From a virus (Duplodnaviria > Heunggongvirae > Uroviricota > Caudoviricetes): a DNA stretch of 6,866 nt. Shown piece by piece: positions 1 through 6,218 of this stretch; within the stretch, counting starts at the first letter, position 1; each line of letters begins with the position of its first letter. Below the pieces are notes generated by a model that did not search any database, was not told the DNA's origin, and saw only the letters and a program-made list of their open reading frames with translations. The stretch is from positions 1 through 6,866 of the IMG/VR virus record IMGVR_UViG_2558860274_000009. The stretch is one strand, 5' to 3'. The translations under genes and the position numbers were made by a program.

Positions 1-17
1 TTTTATTTCTTCATGCC

Positions 18-41
18 AAAAGGGAGTAATCTCCCTTTTTT
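18..41 (+). terminator. Rho-independent terminator-like hairpin upstream of yfaA
   Basis: AAAA / GGGAG (22-26) - loop TAAT - CTCCC (31-35) followed by TTTTTT (36-41). Likely terminates the upstream gene (gyrA in the K-12 gene order, if this locus is syntenic). Confidence 0.45.
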
Positions 42-148
42 GAATTGAAAAGTCCAGGCTGCAAAGTCTGGGCTTTTGTTGTATTAAGGCGCGAGAAAAT
101 TTTGCATCGCCCGTAAAAAATGGCTGGCTTTACACAAGGAATGTGGCA

Positions 149-1846
149 ATGAGTGGTGAAAAAAGGGCGAAAGGCTGGCGGTTTTATGGTCTTGTAGGTT
201 TTGGCGCAATAGCACTGCTTTCCGCGGGTGTCTGGGCATTGCAATATGCTGGCAGTGGGCCAGAAAAAACGTTGTCGCCTCTGGTGGTGCACAACAATCT
301 GCAAATCGATCTCAATGAGCCGGACCTCTTTCTCGACAGCGATTCGTTAAGCCAGCTTCCCAAAGACCTCCTCACAATTCCTTTTCTGCGCGATGTTCTA
401 AGTGAAGATTTTGTTTTTTATTATCAGAACCATGCTGACCGTCTGGGGATTGAAGGTAGTATTCGGCGCATTGTGTATGAACATGATTTAACGCTGAAAG
501 ATAAGCTCTTTTCTTCATTGTTAGACCAGCCAGCGCAAGCGGCGCTGTGGCACGACAAACAAGGCCATCTCTCGCATTATATCGTGCTGATTCAACGCAG
601 TGGTTTGAGTAAGTTATTGGAGCCGTTACTGTTTGCCGCCACCAGCGACAGCCAGTTAAGTAAGACGGAGATCAGTAGCATTACGATTAATAATGAAACC
701 ATACCTGTTTATCAACTGCGCTATAACGGCAATAACTCACTGCTGTTTACCCGTTATCAGGACAAGATGCTGGTTTTTTCCAGCACAGATATGTTGTTTA
801 AAGGCGACCAGCAGGATACCGAAGCCACGGCGATCGCGAGTGATTTGTTGAGCGGGAAAAAACACTGGGAGGCCAGCTTTGGCCTGGAAGACCGTTTACA
901 ATCCTCCGCTGAAAAAACACTTGTTCGCCAGCGTATCGTGGTTAGCGCTAATTTGCTGGGTTTAGGTTACCAGCGGTTAATTCCTTCTTTTGCTGGCGTG
1001 CGCTTTGAAATGAGCAATGATGGCTGGCGCAGCTTTCTGGCGTTGAATGATGAATCCGCCAGTGTCGATGCCAGTTTTGATTTCACTCCGGTATGGCGCA
1101 GTATGCCTGCTGGTGCCAGCTTCTGCGTGGCGCTGCCTTATTCGCACGGTATTGCCGAAGAGATGCTCTCGCATATCAGCCAGGAAAACGACAAATTGAG
1201 CGGGATGTTGGACGGTGCTGCCGGGCTATGCTGGTATGAAGATTCCAGGTTGCAAACCCCCCTGTTTGTTGGCCAATTTGATGGCGCTGCCGAGCAAGCG
1301 CAACTGCCAGGGAAGCTGTTTACACAAACAATCGGGGCCCTCGAGAGCAAAGCACCTGAAGGTGTGTTGCCGGTAACGCAAACACAACAGGGCGACGCGC
1401 AAATCTGGCGGCGTGAAGTCAGCTCCCGTTATGGTCAGTATCCCGCAGCCCAGGCGGCGAAACCAGAACAACTGATGTCCGATTATTTTTTCCGCGTCTC
1501 GCTGGCGATGCAGAACAAGACGCTGATTTTCTCCCTTGACGACACGCTGGTCAATAACGCGCTGCAAACGCTGAACAAAACGCGCCCGGCAATGGTGGAT
1601 GTAATACCGGCTGATGGCGTCATTCCGGTCTATATCAATCCACAAGGGGTGGCAAAATTACTGCGTAATGAAACATTGGCCAGCTTGCCAAAAAACCTTG
1701 AGCCTGTTTTTTATAACGCAGCGCAGACTTTATTAATGCCGAAGCTGGACGCTTTATCGCAACAACCCCGTTATGCAATGAAACTGGTCAAGATGGAGCC
1801 CGGGGCTGCCTGGCAGTGGTTGCCTGTTAGCTGGCAACCATTATGA
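149..1846 (+). CDS. yfaA: YfaA-like protein (DUF2138 family), member of the yfaS alpha-2-macroglobulin operon
   Basis: Long ORF (track 143..1846, GTG at 143). ATG at 149 is preferred because AAGGA at 135-139 gives a 9-nt spacer. N-terminal hydrophobic segment [25 protein letters not shown] suggests a signal anchor. Protein recognised from memory as E. coli YfaA; gene order yfaA then yfaT matches the K-12 locus. Confidence 0.85.
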
Positions 1847-2469
1847 GGCGCGTGTTGTCGGCGCTGATTTGCTGGCTGTTTTGTTTTTTCGCCCATAGCG
1901 AAATGCTGGATGTCGAACAATCGGGACTATTTCGTGCCTGGTTTGTGCGCATTGCCCAGGAACAACTTCGTCAGGGGCCAAGCCCACGTTGGTATCAGCA
2001 GGATTGCGCGGGTCTGGTGCGCTTTGCGGCAAACGAGGCGTTGAAAGTTCATGACAGTAAATGGCTAAAAAATAACAGCATATCTAACCAATATCTGCCG
2101 CCGGAGATGGCGCTAACACCTGAACAGCGGCAATTGGCACAAAACTGGAGCCAGGGGAATGGGAAAACTGGCCCCTATGTGACCGCAATTAATTTGATTC
2201 AGTACAACAGCCATTTTATTGGCCAGGACATAAACCAGGCGTTGCCTGGCGATATGATTTTTTTCGATCAGGGCGATGACCAGCACTTAATGGTATGGAT
2301 GGGACGTTACATCATCTACCACACCGGAAGCGCCACAAAAACTGACAACGGAATGCGCGCAGTCAGTCTGCAACAACTTATGACATGGAAGTTGTATATT
2401 AAAAATTTCATTAATTATCAATATGTTAATGTGCGCTGGTCATTATTAATCAAAATAAAACCATTATGA
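1843..2469 (+). CDS. yfaT: YfaT-like protein (DUF1175 family); 3' end appears to be encoded by prophage arm DNA
   Basis: 208-codon ORF. ATG at 1843 overlaps the yfaA stop (ATGA), indicating translational coupling. N-terminus [19 protein letters not shown] looks like a signal peptide. Composition switches to AT-rich at about 2378, so the last ~28 codons lie in the phage attachment arm. Confidence 0.7.
2376..2463. other. attL: attL-like region: candidate core (about 2376-2390) plus phage P' arm with arm-type Int-binding-like motifs
   Basis: Region 2391-2446 aligns by eye with the lambda P' arm (lambda GTTGGCATTATAAAAAAGCATTGCTTATCAATTTGTTGCAACGAACAGGTCACTAT versus window gttgtatattaaaaatttcattaattatcaatatgttaatgtgcgctggtcattat). 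Arm-type-like GGTCATTAT and AACCATTAT precede the int stop, as in lambda. The 15 bp at the core position (acttatgacatggaa) differ from the lambda core. Sharp GC to AT switch at about 2378. Confidence 0.5.
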
Positions 2470-3534
2470 TATTTCAATTTTGTCCCACTCCCGCCCGCGA
2501 CTGTCCCTGTAACGCGCCGCCATTGAATCTGATTTATGCCCGAGAAGACGTTGAGCAAACTTATCGCCAATCTGATTCCGGTATAGCCTCGCCGACAGGC
2601 TGCGCAGTTCATGGAATGTTGGCGGGTCTCCATCAAATGAGAGTCCAGATGCATTTCTCGCCTTTGTAAAATACTTAGATACTGTTTTCGGGGAAAGCGG
2701 TTCGTGATGCGTTGATGCAATTATTGTTTCACTGCCGCTGGCCTCCCTGCATTTCTGTAGTGTATCAGCCAATGAGATATTGAGCGCGTCAATCGTTAGC
2801 GTCAGCGGAATGGCGAGCTTAGCCCCTGTTTTACCCTGCTCAATGTGAAGATGGTTGTCGTTTATGTCTGACCATTTCATTCTGCATAAATCGCCTACTC
2901 TCTGCCCTGTAACGACAGCCAAATCCATTGCCAGCCTCAGCCAGATTGGGAGCGGTTCGGCTGCATGGTAAATCGCGACATATTCATTAGCTGTCAGTCT
3001 TGAACGCCTTACTTCTGATTTTTCTGTGCGGGTTGCTGTTACCGGATTCGTAGCCACATGCCCCTCGGCTATTGCCTCACGAAAAACGTCAACAAGGGTT
3101 GACCTGATTAATTTTGCGGAAGCCGCTTTACCTTCTGCTACGTAGGTGTTTAGCATTGCTGCCACCTCTTTCGTTGATATGTCAGCGAGCGGTTTGTCCG
3201 GCAATTTTCTTCGGATTGCCCTGATTTTGCTGGCGTAGTCGAGTAGAGTTTTCGGCCTGATACCCCTCTCGCTGAGGATTGTTTCATATCGGTCAAGCCA
3301 CGCATGAAGAGTGATTGCGTCAGCGCCTTTAATTCTGTCTATCAGTGACTCACGCCTGTTCCCGGATAGCAACTCAATATTGGCCTGTATTGCTTCAGTG
3401 ATTGCTATCCTCCTGTCTCGGCCTAATCCGAACTCTTTACCCGTCCTTGGGTCCCTGTAGCAGTAATATCCATTGTTTCTTATATAAAGGTTAGGGGGTA
3501 AATCCCGGCGCTCATGACTTCGCCTTCTTCCCAT
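2464..3534 (-). CDS. int: Lambda-family tyrosine integrase
   Basis: 356 aa. First ~55 aa ([55 protein letters not shown]) match lambda Int arm-binding domain as recalled; the rest is diverged but retains the catalytic signature ([24 protein letters not shown] with the terminal Tyr) and the C-terminal REWDKIEI. Overlaps xis by 23 bp as in lambda. Confidence 0.95.
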
Positions 3535-3730
3535 TTCTGATCCTCTTCAAAAGGCTACTTGTTACTGGTCGATTTAAGTCAACCTTTACCGCTGATTCGT
3601 GGAACAGATACTCTCTTCCATCCTTAACCGGAGGAGGGAATATCCTGCATTCGCGCACCCATCGACGAACTGTTTCAAGGCTTCTTGGGCGTCGCTGGCG
3701 TGCATTCCACTCCTGAAGTGTCAAGTACAT
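3512..3730 (-). CDS. xis: Excisionase Xis (near-identical to phage lambda Xis)
   Basis: 72 aa, [70 protein letters not shown]; matches lambda Xis from memory except about 2 residues. Sits directly upstream of and overlapping int. Confidence 0.95.
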   Translation of the reverse strand: MYLTLQEWNARQRRPRSLETVRRWVRECRIFPPPVKDGREYLFHESAVKVDLNRPVTSSLLKRIRNGKKAKS

Positions 3731-3750
3731 CGCAAAGTCTCCGCAATTAC

Positions 3751-3776
3751 ACGCAAGAAAAGCCGCATTGATGCGG
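3751..3776 (-). terminator. Hairpin plus T-tract on the minus strand just upstream of xis
   Basis: Perfect 7-bp stem GCCGCAT / loop TG / ATGCGGC (3761-3776). On the minus strand it is followed by TTTTCTTG. Lambda has a hairpin at the equivalent position as recalled. Confidence 0.3.
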
Positions 3777-3953
3777 CAATGGTAGGTCTGGATATCTTGA
3801 GAAATGAACAGGCCTCATTGAGTGTGAGGCTGTGGTTAGTCCTTGCGTAGCTCGCTAATTCTTCTGTAAGTCTCTGGTGCTTTGTTTCCGTGTATCTTCA
3901 TTTCAGACTTCAACAGAGCGACGAGGGAATCCCATTCGTTGAGGATGCCTTTG

Positions 3954-4088
3954 AATAACCTGGTTGCCCAGGGCAATGTTCTGCCTGTTCTGTACGGTGA
4001 ACTGCGCGTGGGGTCACGTGTGGTCTCTCAGGAGATCAGCACGGCAGATGAAGGGGATGGTGGTCAGGTTGTGGTTATTGGTCGCTGA
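3954..4088 (+). pseudogene. I: 3' fragment (last ~45 codons) of tail assembly protein gene I
   Basis: Translation NNLVAQGNVLPVLYGELRVGSRVVSQEISTADEGDGGQVVVIGR* matches the C-terminus of lambda gpI as recalled. The upstream part of track ORF 3882..4088 (MFPCIFISDFNRATRESHSLRMPL) has no I-like character, so this is a truncated remnant. Confidence 0.65.
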
Positions 4089-4089
4089 T

Positions 4090-4115
4090 AATCACCGCCA
4101 GCTATGACGGTGATT
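4090..4115. terminator. Inverted repeat between the convergent I fragment and sodC (possible bidirectional terminator)
   Basis: AATCACCG (4090-4097) ... CGGTGATT (4108-4115), 8-bp stem with 10-nt loop, immediately after the I stop and 15 bp past the sodC stop. No strong T-tract. Confidence 0.3.
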
Positions 4116-4130
4116 GCTTTAGGCTGTTTG

Positions 4131-4652
4131 TTATTTAATTATTCCGCATGCCAGTCTTGCGCCCCCACCCCCCAGAGGAGCAGGTGAATCGGAATGATTA
4201 TCCCCTCCGGCATGAATCATGATCGCCCGTTCTTTTATCTGGCTTATTTTTTTTATTTTTGGACTCAGAACCGGGTTTTCTGCATTTCCTTCTGAGTTGA
4301 CATAGAGTGCTGGTAGATCACCCAGATGGCCCTCCGGATTGTACGGCCCAAGATGTTTATTTGTTTGTTCAGGATCATAATGCCCACCGGCAGCAAGAGC
4401 TGGCACTTTTTTTCCATTAATCAGACCGGGATCACAACTGGCATTTTCATGGATATGAAAGCCATGTAACCCTGGTGGCAGTTCTTTCAGATGAGGAGTG
4501 AACAGCAATCCGTAGCTGGTTTCTGAAATAGTTATTTCCCCTATATTTTTCCCTACTCCTTCTGAGGAAACGAGATTTACAGGGATCGTCATTGTATCAG
4601 CCATTACGGCTCCACTAAGTAGCGCAGTTACAGCAAGTATTTTTTTTATCAT
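4131..4652 (-). CDS. sodC: Periplasmic Cu,Zn superoxide dismutase, prophage-borne (moron)
   Basis: 173 aa. Signal peptide MIKKILAVTALLSGAVMA. Cu,Zn-SOD motifs HGFHIHE, GGHYDP, GHLGDLP, HAGGDNHSD and C-terminal GGGGARLACGIIK. Opposite orientation to the flanking tail genes. Confidence 0.9.
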   Translation of the reverse strand: MIKKILAVTALLSGAVMADTMTIPVNLVSSEGVGKNIGEITISETSYGLLFTPHLKELPPGLHGFHIHENASCDPGLINGKKVPALAAGGHYDPEQTNKHLGPYNPEGHLGDLPALYVNSEGNAENPVLSPKIKKISQIKERAIMIHAGGDNHSDSPAPLGGGGARLACGIIK

Positions 4653-4785
4653 AAATACCCCGTCATTTCGTGTTGTTAATCAAGGTGATTTAAGTTTTAA
4701 CAAATGAAATACAACAGATGCATTTTTGTTGCAAGCGGTCGTTATATGGTTCGCATAAAATTGATTACTGTTTCGGGAATTATCT

Positions 4786-5162
4786 ATGGGTAAAGGTGGC
4801 AGTAAGGGGCATACCCCGCGCGAAGCGAAGGACAACCTGAAATCATCCCAGATGCTGAGCGTGATAGACGCCATCAGTGAAGGGCCGATTGAAGGTCCGG
4901 TGGACGGATTAAAAAGTGTGCTGCTGAACAGTACGCCAGTGCTGGACAGTGAGGGGAATACCAATATCTCCGGTGTCACGGTGGTGTTCCGGGCAGGTGA
5001 GCAGGAGCAGACACCGCCGGAGGGATTTGAATCCTCCGGCTCCGAGACGGTGCTGGGTACGGAAGTGAAGTACGACACACCGATTACCCGGACCATCACG
5101 TCGGCAAACATCGACCGTCTGCGCTTTACCTTCGGTGTTCAGGCACTGGTGGAAACCGAATC
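4786..5162 (+). pseudogene. J: 5' fragment (~125 codons) of tail tip / host specificity gene J, joined out of frame to collagen-like sequence
   Basis: [124 protein letters not shown] matches the lambda gpJ N-terminus as recalled. After about 5162 the same frame gives Arg/Pro/Gly-rich out-of-frame text to a stop at 5361. Full J is about 1130 aa. Confidence 0.75.
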
Positions 5163-5168
5163 CCCACC

Positions 5169-5738
5169 GTGGAGGGACCTCCCGGGCCAAAGGGGGAACA
5201 GGGGCCCGCTGGCCCTCAGGGGCCGAAGGGTGATAAGGGAGAGCGTGGTGACACCGGTCCTGTCGGGGCAACCGGCGAACGGGGACCGAGAGGAGATACA
5301 GGTCCGGCAGGCCCGCAGGGGTCGAAAGGCGACAGGGGGGAACGGGGAGAGACCGGTCTGACGGGAAGTACAGGTCCACAGGGGCCAAAGGGAGATACTG
5401 GTGCAGCAGGCCCGGCAGGCCCACAGGGACCGAAAGGCGAAACAGGAGCGGCAGGTCCGGTGGGGGCTACCGGACCTCAGGGGCCGAAGGGAGACCCGGG
5501 CGAGACACAAATCCGTTTTCGTCTGGGGCCGATGAGCATTATTGAGACAAACAGCTATGGCTGGTTCCCGGATACAGATGGTGCGCTCATCACCGGACTG
5601 ACCTTTCTTGACCCCAAAGATGCCACACAGGTTCAGGGGATGTTTCAGCATTTGCAGGTCAGGTTTGGTGACGGGCCGTGGCAGGATGTTAAGGGGCTGG
5701 ATGAAGTGGGCAGTGATACAGGCAGAACAGGAGAATGA
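5169..5738 (+). CDS. Collagen-like phage tail fibre protein, 5'-truncated (collagen triple-helix repeats plus C-terminal globular domain)
   Basis: This frame is open from 5031 with no ATG; the track start is GTG at 5169 and has no Shine-Dalgarno. 36 uninterrupted Gly-X-Y triplets (5175-5498), then a non-repetitive C-terminal domain ([77 protein letters not shown]). Typical of collagen-like side tail fibre proteins of EHEC prophages. Probably a remnant rather than an expressed gene. Confidence 0.6.
5175..5504 (+). repeat. Collagen-like Gly-X-Y coding repeat (36 consecutive triplets), GC-rich
   Basis: Direct reading of frame 3: [108 protein letters not shown], then GE. Confidence 0.9.
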
Positions 5739-5739
5739 C

Positions 5740-6009
5740 ATGAATATACTAAAAAAACTTATGCAGTGTCTGTGTGGTTGCGGAAAGCATGATGGCCGTG
5801 AACACGTGCAGTCGCCTACAGCACAGCTGCGACTGGGACCGGCAGACATTCTGGAGTCCGATGAGAATGGCATTATCCCGGAGCAGGCCAGGGTAATCAC
5901 GCAGGTGGTGATACTGGATGCGGATAAAAAGCAGATACAGTGCGTGGTAAGACCGCTGCAAATTCTGCGTGCTGACGGGACGTGGGAAAATATTGGCTGG
6001 ATGAAGTAA
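5740..6009 (+). CDS. Hypothetical small protein (89 aa) coupled to the tail-fibre gene
   Basis: ATG at 5740 preceded by AGGAG (5727-5731) and starting 1 nt after the tail-fibre stop (TGA 5736-5738). Sequence MNILKKLMQCLCGCGKHDG... has a Cys-rich N-terminus. Followed by a strong terminator. Track ORF 5608..6009 is the same frame with an upstream ATG that lies inside the tail-fibre gene and has no RBS. Confidence 0.55.
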   Translation: MNILKKLMQCLCGCGKHDGREHVQSPTAQLRLGPADILESDENGIIPEQARVITQVVILDADKKQIQCVVRPLQILRADGTWENIGWMK

Positions 6010-6025
6010 CCCGACAGCTTCACAA

Positions 6026-6050
6026 AACCGGAGTCTGGCTCCGGTTTTTT
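6026..6050 (+). terminator. Rho-independent terminator after the 89-aa ORF
   Basis: AAAA / CCGGAG (6028-6033) - loop TCTGG - CTCCGG (6039-6044) followed by TTTTTT (6045-6050). Confidence 0.65.
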
Positions 6051-6072
6051 GTTGTCATGTCATGGTGATGTT

Positions 6073-6087
6073 TGTTAATGAAGTTAA
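6073..6087 (+). repeat. Direct repeat copy 1 (TGTTAATGAAGTTAA) upstream of nleG
   Basis: Exact 15-bp match to 6191-6205, 118 bp apart, in the AT-rich region upstream of the effector gene. Confidence 0.7.
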
Positions 6088-6190
6088 ATTTATTTTGGCT
6101 TGATAATGGAGTCTTATCTTTTGCAAGACTGATAATGGTGTGTGAAAGCATTGTGATAAGTAAGATGCTTCAACAGGAAATCAAGTAAAA

Positions 6191-6205
6191 TGTTAATGAA
6201 GTTAA
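6191..6205 (+). repeat. Direct repeat copy 2 (TGTTAATGAAGTTAA), immediately upstream of the nleG ribosome-binding site
   Basis: Exact 15-bp match to 6073-6087; ends 13 bp before the nleG ATG. Confidence 0.7.
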
Positions 6206-6218
6206 TGGGGGTTTTATT

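Follow-up and report, generated by a model that had tools for sequence, protein, structure and literature searches.

The integration systems closest to the locus described here belong to phage HK022 and phage lambda, which are related to each other as mosaics (Yagil et al. 1989, J Mol Biol 207:695, as cited in PMC7736782 and PMC6814406). The bacterial attachment site (attB) of HK022 lies between torS and torT (PMC6814406). The overlap sequence used by HK022 may be any sequence, provided that the phage attachment site (attP) and attB match, and the demands on the half-sites are loose (PMC7736782). The exchanges N99D and H329R were described as determinants of the change from lambda to HK022 specificity (PMC10863862), and the gene yfaT has already been documented as an insertion gene disrupted by prophages (PMC3603311, PMC7192596). 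Here, a stretch of 6,866 nucleotides was analysed (the window; positions 1 to 6,866 of the IMG/VR record IMGVR_UViG_2558860274_000009), all bases of which are 100% identical to the genome of Escherichia albertii KF1 (CP007025.1, accession confirmed in PMC3907721). With a probability of roughly 80%, it is assumed that its integrase and excisionase genes, int and xis, form, together with attL, one end of a degraded lambdoid prophage of 7,074 bp in yfaT of E. albertii (KF1 or an identical genome), that the module is of the HK022 type, that the address yfaT is laid down in attP, and that autonomous excision is improbable.

The attL core was determined by comparing attB with the left and right prophage junctions (attL and attR), using the E. 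albertii type strain against KF1 and E. coli K-12 against E. coli O26:H11 11368. Homology with the empty sites of K-12 and of the type strain stops at window position 2391. The sequence common to attL and attR reads CTT[A/C]TGACATGGAAG and extends from 2377 to 2391, with 11 exact bases (2381-2391). The core had been placed at 2376-2390 in a first-pass annotation of the sequence, one base off, as the empty-site homology ends at 2391. The only mismatch within the 15-bp repeat, an A in attL and attB and a C in attR, is located to the left of the exact block TGACATGGAAG, as would be expected if strands were exchanged within this block. The matching attR, on whose survival that annotation had made excision dependent, is present in KF1 as CTTCTGACATGGAAG at the window-equivalent positions 9451-9465, 2,585 bases past the end of the window, and near-identical relatives carry the same attR. 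Taken together, the left side of attL and the right side of attR correspond base for base to the empty attB of the type strain, and the 4 kb downstream are colinear with this strain at 99% identity. The length of the remnant from attL to attR amounts to 7,074 bp.

The attL core (2374-2394) comprises the B half-site CAACTTA (2374-2380), a putative 7-bp overlap TGACATG (2381-2387) and the C' half-site GAAGTTG (2388-2394), where the limits of half-sites and overlap, and with them the probable cleavage positions and overlap length, were placed by alignment with the cores of HK022 and lambda. Based on attL and attR, the yfaT-type attP core was reconstructed as CTCCTTC-TGACATG-GAAGTTG, while the attB core in yfaT reads CAACTTA-TGACATG-GAAGGAC. 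For HK022, the attP core is ATCCTTT-AGGTGAA-TAAGTTG and the attB core, the sequence of which was confirmed in K-12, is GCACTTT-AGGTGAA-AAAGGTT. C and B' belong to the 'CCTT' kind of half-site at yfaT and in HK022 alike, and C' and B to the 'ACTT' kind; the core differs from that of lambda, as had been noted before.

The reconstructed attP is colinear with the attP of HK022 and lambda. In it, P1 is identical, P2, the IHF H' site, P'1 to P'3 and the sib region are conserved, and an Xis/Fis region is present as well. It shows the composition of a complex attP, with arm-type sites in both arms and inverted half-sites around an overlap of inferred length. The P' half of the cassette (2392-2513), which contains the last 17 int codons and is colinear with the P' arms of HK022 and lambda, harbours an IHF H'-like site, TTATCAATATGTTA (2415-2428), and the arm-type sites P'1 (2436-2446), P'2 (2447-2456) and P'3 (2457-2467). 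For the attP junction, as expected in a free phage or an excised circle, no exact match was obtained in IMG/VR or the JGI metagenomes, and in INPHARED the best phage (Gally) reached 77.7% similarity and was of the torS-torT type. Since the yfaT-type junction was found in no isolated phage or metagenomic contig searched, this attP is referred to as reconstructed and not as observed. The P' arm also contains a sigma-70-like site, ATGACC-18-GATAAT (2414-2443, minus strand), which points outward, antisense into yfaT; for the P' arm of HK022, an outward-reading promoter driving torS was reported (PMC6814406).

Both genes of the module are located on the minus strand, intact and of full length, at the positions assigned to them before. 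The gene int (2464-3534) encodes an HK022-type heterobivalent tyrosine integrase of 356 amino acids and xis (3512-3730) a lambda/HK022-type excisionase of 72 amino acids, and the two overlap by 23 nt as in lambda. Int comprises the lambda arm-DNA-binding domain (PF09003, 7e-29), a SAM-like core-binding domain (PF02899, 2e-14) and the tyrosine-recombinase catalytic domain Phage_integrase (PF00589, 4e-41), which is the domain set of the heterobivalent lambda family, and Xis matches PF07825 (4e-41). Xis is identical at 70 of 72 residues to lambda Xis, at 71 of 72 to that of HK022 and at 72 of 72 to that of the O26 prophage. The alignment of Int with lambda Int is free of gaps and shows 76% identity, which is distributed unevenly: all of the residues 1-55 are identical (55/55), compared to 74/106 for residues 64-169 and 138/186 for residues 170-355, so that Int is ~72% identical to lambda beyond residue 55 (heterogeneity of the protein segments: Fisher p = 7e-8). 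The catalytic residues R212, K235, H308, R311, H333 and Y342 are all kept in this alignment. The first-pass annotation had described exactly this picture, namely an Xis nearly identical to that of lambda, a match of the first ~55 Int residues, and core-binding and catalytic domains that diverged domain-wise and not uniformly while retaining the catalytic residues. At the DNA level, the maximum chi-square breakpoint against lambda lies at window position 3371, with 609/907 identical positions (67%) to the left and 376/390 (96%) to the right. Together with the sliding identity, it delimits a segment in common with lambda (3371-3760, minus strand; 96-100% nucleotide identity), which includes int codons 1 to ~55, all of xis and the pI region.

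A tblastn search of 50,697 phage records showed an identity of 97.7% to the Int of HK022 (X51962) and of 99.7% to the Int of the Stx1a-converting phage Stx1a_NIID112183, while the Ints of lambda and 434 reached ~76% and that of phage 21 39%. HK022 is the closest of lambda, HK022, 21 and 434. The Int of the prophage in yfaT of E. coli O26:H11 11368 differs in one residue. At the positions D99, P282, K283, K287, R319 and R329, Int is identical to HK022 in all six cases and differs from lambda in all six. The positions P282, K283, K287 and R319 are reportedly core-specificity positions, said to go back to work by Dorgai, Yagil and Weisberg in 1995. The mosaic integrase is thus the classical and long-known relationship of lambda and HK022. 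A further difference concerns codon 171 of int (3022-3024), which is GAA (Glu) in KF1 and GCA (Ala) in E. albertii CP070292, the O26 prophage, HK022 and lambda. A171E is a derived change of the KF1 lineage and is located in the linker joining the core-binding and catalytic domains, near the Int-h position E174.

The comparison with phages at other sites gives an indication of where the insertion address is encoded. Stx1a_NIID112183 sits at torS-torT, since its record opens with torS sequence, and the annotated duplication is CTTAAGGTGAATAAG. Its Int differs from the window Int only by A171E and the C-terminal residue. The DNA of the two elements is identical at 1246/1248 positions (99.8%) over 2514-3760, while over 2392-2513, i.e. 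the P' arm and the last 17 int codons, the identity drops to 92/121 (76%), with mostly synonymous changes in int; the overlap is TGACATG at yfaT and AGGTGAA at torS-torT. Since the Int of the O26 prophage in yfaT has A171 like the torS-torT phages, no residue separates the integrases of the two sites. At a third site, an Int with four internal differences adjoins mdtA in E. coli Z1323CEC0004. Here, the half-sites C and C' of attP (ATCCTTT and TAAGTTG) are those of HK022 itself, combined with the overlap AATAAGG, and the attB, which lies just upstream of ibsB, reads GGCCATA-AATAAGG-AAAGGGT in K-12. Among 5,426 complete E. coli genomes, attL of the yfaT type was counted 177 times, of the torS-torT type 195 times and of the ibsB-upstream type 85 times.

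The address yfaT therefore appears to be written in attP, by the overlap TGACATG and the neighbouring core bases, and not in Int, because a near-identical Int serves torS-torT and the elements differ only in the attP cassette. This is also suggested by the fit of the three-site series to the published experiments with arbitrary but matching HK022 overlaps. We lean towards a more general assumption, for which the balance is somewhat favourable: HK022-type integrases may be naturally 'address-programmable', in that one near-invariant Int (at least 98.6% identical) would have been redeployed to at least three sites (torS-torT, ibsB-upstream and yfaT) by swapping a ~300-bp attP cassette between the sib region and the int 3' end, with the 7-bp overlap and a few core bases acting as the address. 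The yfaT-type cassette was so far seen in prophages only and in no isolated phage.

The first-pass annotation had attributed the insertion in yfaT to a lambda-like recombination module retargeted along with the divergence of its integrase. The lambda-like mosaic module at the 3' end of yfaT holds true, but not the divergence of Int as the cause, since this Int belongs to the known HK022 class and the same protein is found at torS-torT. A new yfaT specificity created by the core-binding and catalytic domains would agree with their identity of 70-74% to lambda and with the differing core. Every yfaT-specific difference, however, lies in attP, while Ints distinguished by A171E and the C-terminal residue only, or by four internal differences, occur at torS-torT and upstream of ibsB, and the Int of the O26 yfaT prophage has A171 as in the torS-torT phages. 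This explanation is already largely refuted and considered very improbable. Even less credit can be given to the explanation that the lambda identity of xis and the Int N-terminus originates from strong purifying selection on the arm-binding functions instead of mosaic recombination. The sharing of arm-type sites and Xis sites does place a functional constraint on Xis and the N-terminus of Int, but selection at the protein level would leave the synonymous divergence in place. Instead, the nucleotide identity leaps from 67% to 96% at a sharp breakpoint with synonymous positions included, and the synonymous divergence in 3371-3730 is not equal to that in 2464-3370. Because synonymous positions are equally affected at the 3371 breakpoint, the mosaic of lambda and HK022 stems from recombination and not from selection.

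Two further explanations concern the capability for excision. The remnant has kept int, xis, attL and attR intact, and its attL and attR are those of the full-length O26 prophage except for one P-arm base. The earlier expectation that the remnant might still excise is thus valid for the DNA substrates, while the expression of the proteins is doubtful. The sole source of xis expression in lambda is pL, with antitermination by N; the promoter pI depends on cII and gives rise to Int alone. A TTGC-N6-TTGC box directly before the xis ATG (3743-3756; minus strand TTGCGTGTAATTGC) is identical to lambda, and we take it to be the cII-dependent pI promoter. Further upstream, the terminator scan and the alignment with HK022 and lambda revealed two terminator-like hairpins at 3777-3762 and 3830-3812 (3762-3830, minus strand), which are kept in HK022 and lie between the co-oriented sodC and xis. 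Because pL, N and cII are deleted and the hairpins precede xis, autonomous excision is unlikely. A system that is still autonomous, excising spontaneously or after SOS induction, would be in line with the intact genes and sites, the lambda-identical pI region and the upstream sodC transcribed in the same direction. On the other hand, the repressor, operator, pL, N and cII are absent from the 7-kb element, so that nothing is left to respond to SOS; the pI transcript would need cII and would not code for Xis; the hairpins separate sodC from xis; and the remnant is kept with few single nucleotide polymorphisms (SNPs) in several E. albertii genomes. The opposite explanation, a functionally dead module whose reading frames are intact merely because the decay is recent and in which A171E or the arm-site changes may prevent excision even with helper functions, is doubtful, yet deserves more attention. 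It is suggested by the derived A171E in the inter-domain linker, by a sister strain that deleted int and xis without visible consequence, and by the few SNPs that separate the remnant from intact E. coli prophages and leave little time for inactivating mutations. In contrast, every defining residue and site is present, and the one P-arm base is all that distinguishes attL and attR from their counterparts in the 50-kb O26 prophage. Excision is regarded as plausible if Int and Xis are provided in trans.

Altogether, the preferred reading of an HK022-type module at the attL end of a prophage remnant can be summarised as follows. Int would combine an arm-binding N-terminus of the lambda/HK022 type with core-binding and catalytic domains carrying the HK022 core-recognition residues, and because the Int N-terminus and Xis are of the lambda/HK022 type, the arm-site architecture would be the same as in lambda. 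The attP cassette with the core CTCCTTC-TGACATG-GAAGTTG would have directed the insertion into yfaT, where Int and IHF presumably exchanged strands within the 7-bp overlap TGACATG common to attP and the yfaT attB. With the normal drivers of xis-int (pL with N, and cII for pI) deleted and terminators placed before xis, excision would need read-through or Int and Xis in trans. The predicted integration (attP x attB) and Xis-dependent excision (attL x attR) by this Int have indirect support only, from the occurrence of the same junctions in two species whose flanks are typical of each. Several observations weigh against this reading: the boundaries of the 7-bp overlap follow from alignment only, the arm sites P'2 and P'3 are 1-2 bases off HK022, the KF1 Int bears the derived A171E in its linker, a free-phage or excised-circle junction of the yfaT type was absent from IMG/VR, the JGI metagenomes and INPHARED, and read-through into xis-int may occur from sodC or another promoter.

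Regarding the origin of the remnant, the window region 2392-3956 is 99.9% identical to the ~50-kb nleA/nleG prophage at yfaT of E. coli O26:H11 11368, compared to 80-92% for the flanks. In KF1, both flanks resemble E. albertii as closely as do those of the type strain, where the site is empty, which argues for a site-specific integration in E. albertii without E. coli flanking DNA. These findings point to a cross-species phage transfer by which the prophage reached E. albertii, followed by site-specific integration. The homology to the O26 prophage stops at 3956. At this deletion junction (3954-3959), the early-left region of the prophage runs directly into the 3' end of a lambda tail-I-like gene; in intact prophages, 3957-4089 corresponds to the final part of tail I. 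The whole stretch between the region upstream of xis and the tail genes has been lost, including pL, N, the immunity region, cI/cro, cII, replication, lysis and head genes. Instead of a complete inducible lambdoid prophage, the 7,074-bp element comprises only int, xis, the tail-I fragment, sodC, fragments of J and the tail fibre, nleG and nleA.

The remaining part of the element looks pruned to sodC and the effectors. The tail-I-like fragment (3957-4089, plus strand) is followed by a sodC cassette on the minus strand (4090-4785; gene at 4131-4652), which encodes a Cu/Zn superoxide dismutase and separates the tail-I fragment from the J fragment that follows, while I and J are only ~60 nt apart in the intact prophages compared. 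The tail module (4786-6009) is broken: through further internal deletions, 372 nt of the J 5' end (N-terminal fragment, 4786-5157, plus strand) are fused near 5153-5157 to the C-terminal part of a collagen-repeat tail fibre, followed by an 89-aa Phage_fiber_C protein (tail-fibre fragments at 5169-6009, plus strand). The SNPs of related strains are concentrated in the collagen repeats (5399-5501). The effector cargo is kept, with an intact nleG type III effector gene (215 aa; 6219-6866, plus strand) and a 440-aa gene in the nleA position adjoining attR (window-equivalent 7560-8882), as in the O26 prophage. The sister strain that lost int and xis, E. albertii CP117580, lacks window 2514-3955 and shows a TAAC microhomology at the junction; like A171E in the KF1 lineage, this loss speaks for a decay that is still under way. 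The right end of its deletion is located 0-4 nt from the older deletion junction of KF1, beside the palindrome CCTGGTTGCCCAGG, and the shared junction area could be a deletion hotspot or reflect sequential deletions. A meaningful match of the left end (2513) to the boundary of the attP cassette was rejected, as this boundary is set only by the last informative SNP at 2512, after which the sequences are identical.

The layout of the window was determined from the listing of open reading frames and Pfam scans; an Rfam scan of the whole window gave no matches. The chromosomal part, which is ~86% identical to E. coli, contains yfaA (DUF2138; 143-1846, plus strand) and yfaT (DUF1175, PF06672; 1843-2469, plus strand), the latter fused at attL. 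An exact-pattern scan of the GTDB genomes with a 50-mer of yfaT gave no match, and the species was recognised by YfaA, which shares 99% identity with its counterpart in the E. albertii type strain and ~90% with E. coli YfaA. E. albertii CP070292 has the same remnant, but its yfaA is interrupted by an IS66-family element at window position ~661-671. The ~190 nt of yfaT before the core (2201-2391) showed 91-96% identity between E. albertii and E. coli, compared to 80-88% for the rest of yfaA-yfaT. An arrival of E. coli flanking DNA together with the prophage was considered for this region and rejected, since both flanks are typical of E. albertii; because the empty-site type strain shows the same conservation, it is not a by-product of the prophage.

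According to the alignment with yfaT of K-12 and O26, codons 1-183 of the fused YfaT are chromosomal, while the final 25 codons and the stop originate from the phage P' arm. A restoration of the yfaT 3' end by the phage, as for phage 21 and e14 at icd, was rejected, since the 25 residues that the phage adds at the C-terminus bear no relation to the native 24; the displaced 3' end is still present at attR. In the supplements of the TIGER paper, a yfaT entry was not found as text. The overlap and B' half-site of the yfaT attB, ATGGAAGGACACCCGATG, contain the Shine-Dalgarno sequence of yfaS, with the start codon directly after it (window 2381-2405; window-equivalent 9455-9480). Likewise, the ibsB attB spans the ibsB ribosome-binding site, and the xAAGG B' motif of HK022-type sites looks like a Shine-Dalgarno sequence. 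The insertion puts 7 kb between yfaS-yfaQ-yfaP and the upstream yfaA-yfaT.

The int-xis pair itself is ordinary, i.e. an HK022-type module with an uncharacterised attP variant in a prophage remnant. Accordingly, the finding itself changes little: it concerns a textbook HK022-type int-xis in a decaying effector-carrying prophage at an already catalogued insertion gene, and the three-site series with one Int leaves the current mechanistic understanding as it is. The series nonetheless offers natural evidence that the site choice of HK022-type integrases is altered by attP core swaps and not by protein evolution, in parallel to laboratory work in which HK022 Int is combined with overlaps of choice, and it cautions that integrase similarity alone is a poor guide to the insertion site of a prophage. 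The nleG/nleA/sodC island at yfaT in KF1 can be annotated as a prophage remnant that has defined boundaries and exact att sites and is probably immobile.

Compared to the known systems, the locus resembles HK022 (X51962) with 97.7% identity in Int, 71 of 72 residues in Xis, the same mosaic relation to lambda, all six specificity residues, an attP that is colinear and has the same arm-type sites, and C and C' half-sites of similar sequence. It differs from HK022 in the overlap (TGACATG instead of AGGTGAA), in C (CTCCTTC instead of ATCCTTT) and C' (GAAGTTG instead of TAAGTTG), in an attP cassette of only ~75-80% identity, in its location inside yfaT instead of between torS and torT, and in being a 7-kb remnant and not a phage. 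With lambda it shares the domain architecture, catalytic residues, 70 of 72 Xis residues, Int residues 1-55, the pI and sib regions and the layout of the arm sites, while the core-binding and catalytic domains are ~72% identical and core sites, overlap and attB are different. The nleA/nleG prophage in yfaT of O26:H11 11368 and other enterohaemorrhagic E. coli agrees in attL, attR, int (one amino acid difference), xis (identical) and the nleG/nleA cargo beside attR; this prophage has ~50 kb with immunity, replication, lysis, head and tail genes, whereas the E. albertii element lost these and gained the sodC cassette between tail gene fragments. Finally, the engineered retargeting of HK022 Int (Kolot et al. 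2015; PMC7736782) likewise employs one Int with arbitrary matching 7-bp overlaps and loose 5-bp half-sites, to which the three natural att pairs fit; while those are laboratory constructs, the cassettes described here are natural attP variants at bacterial sites, known from sequence.

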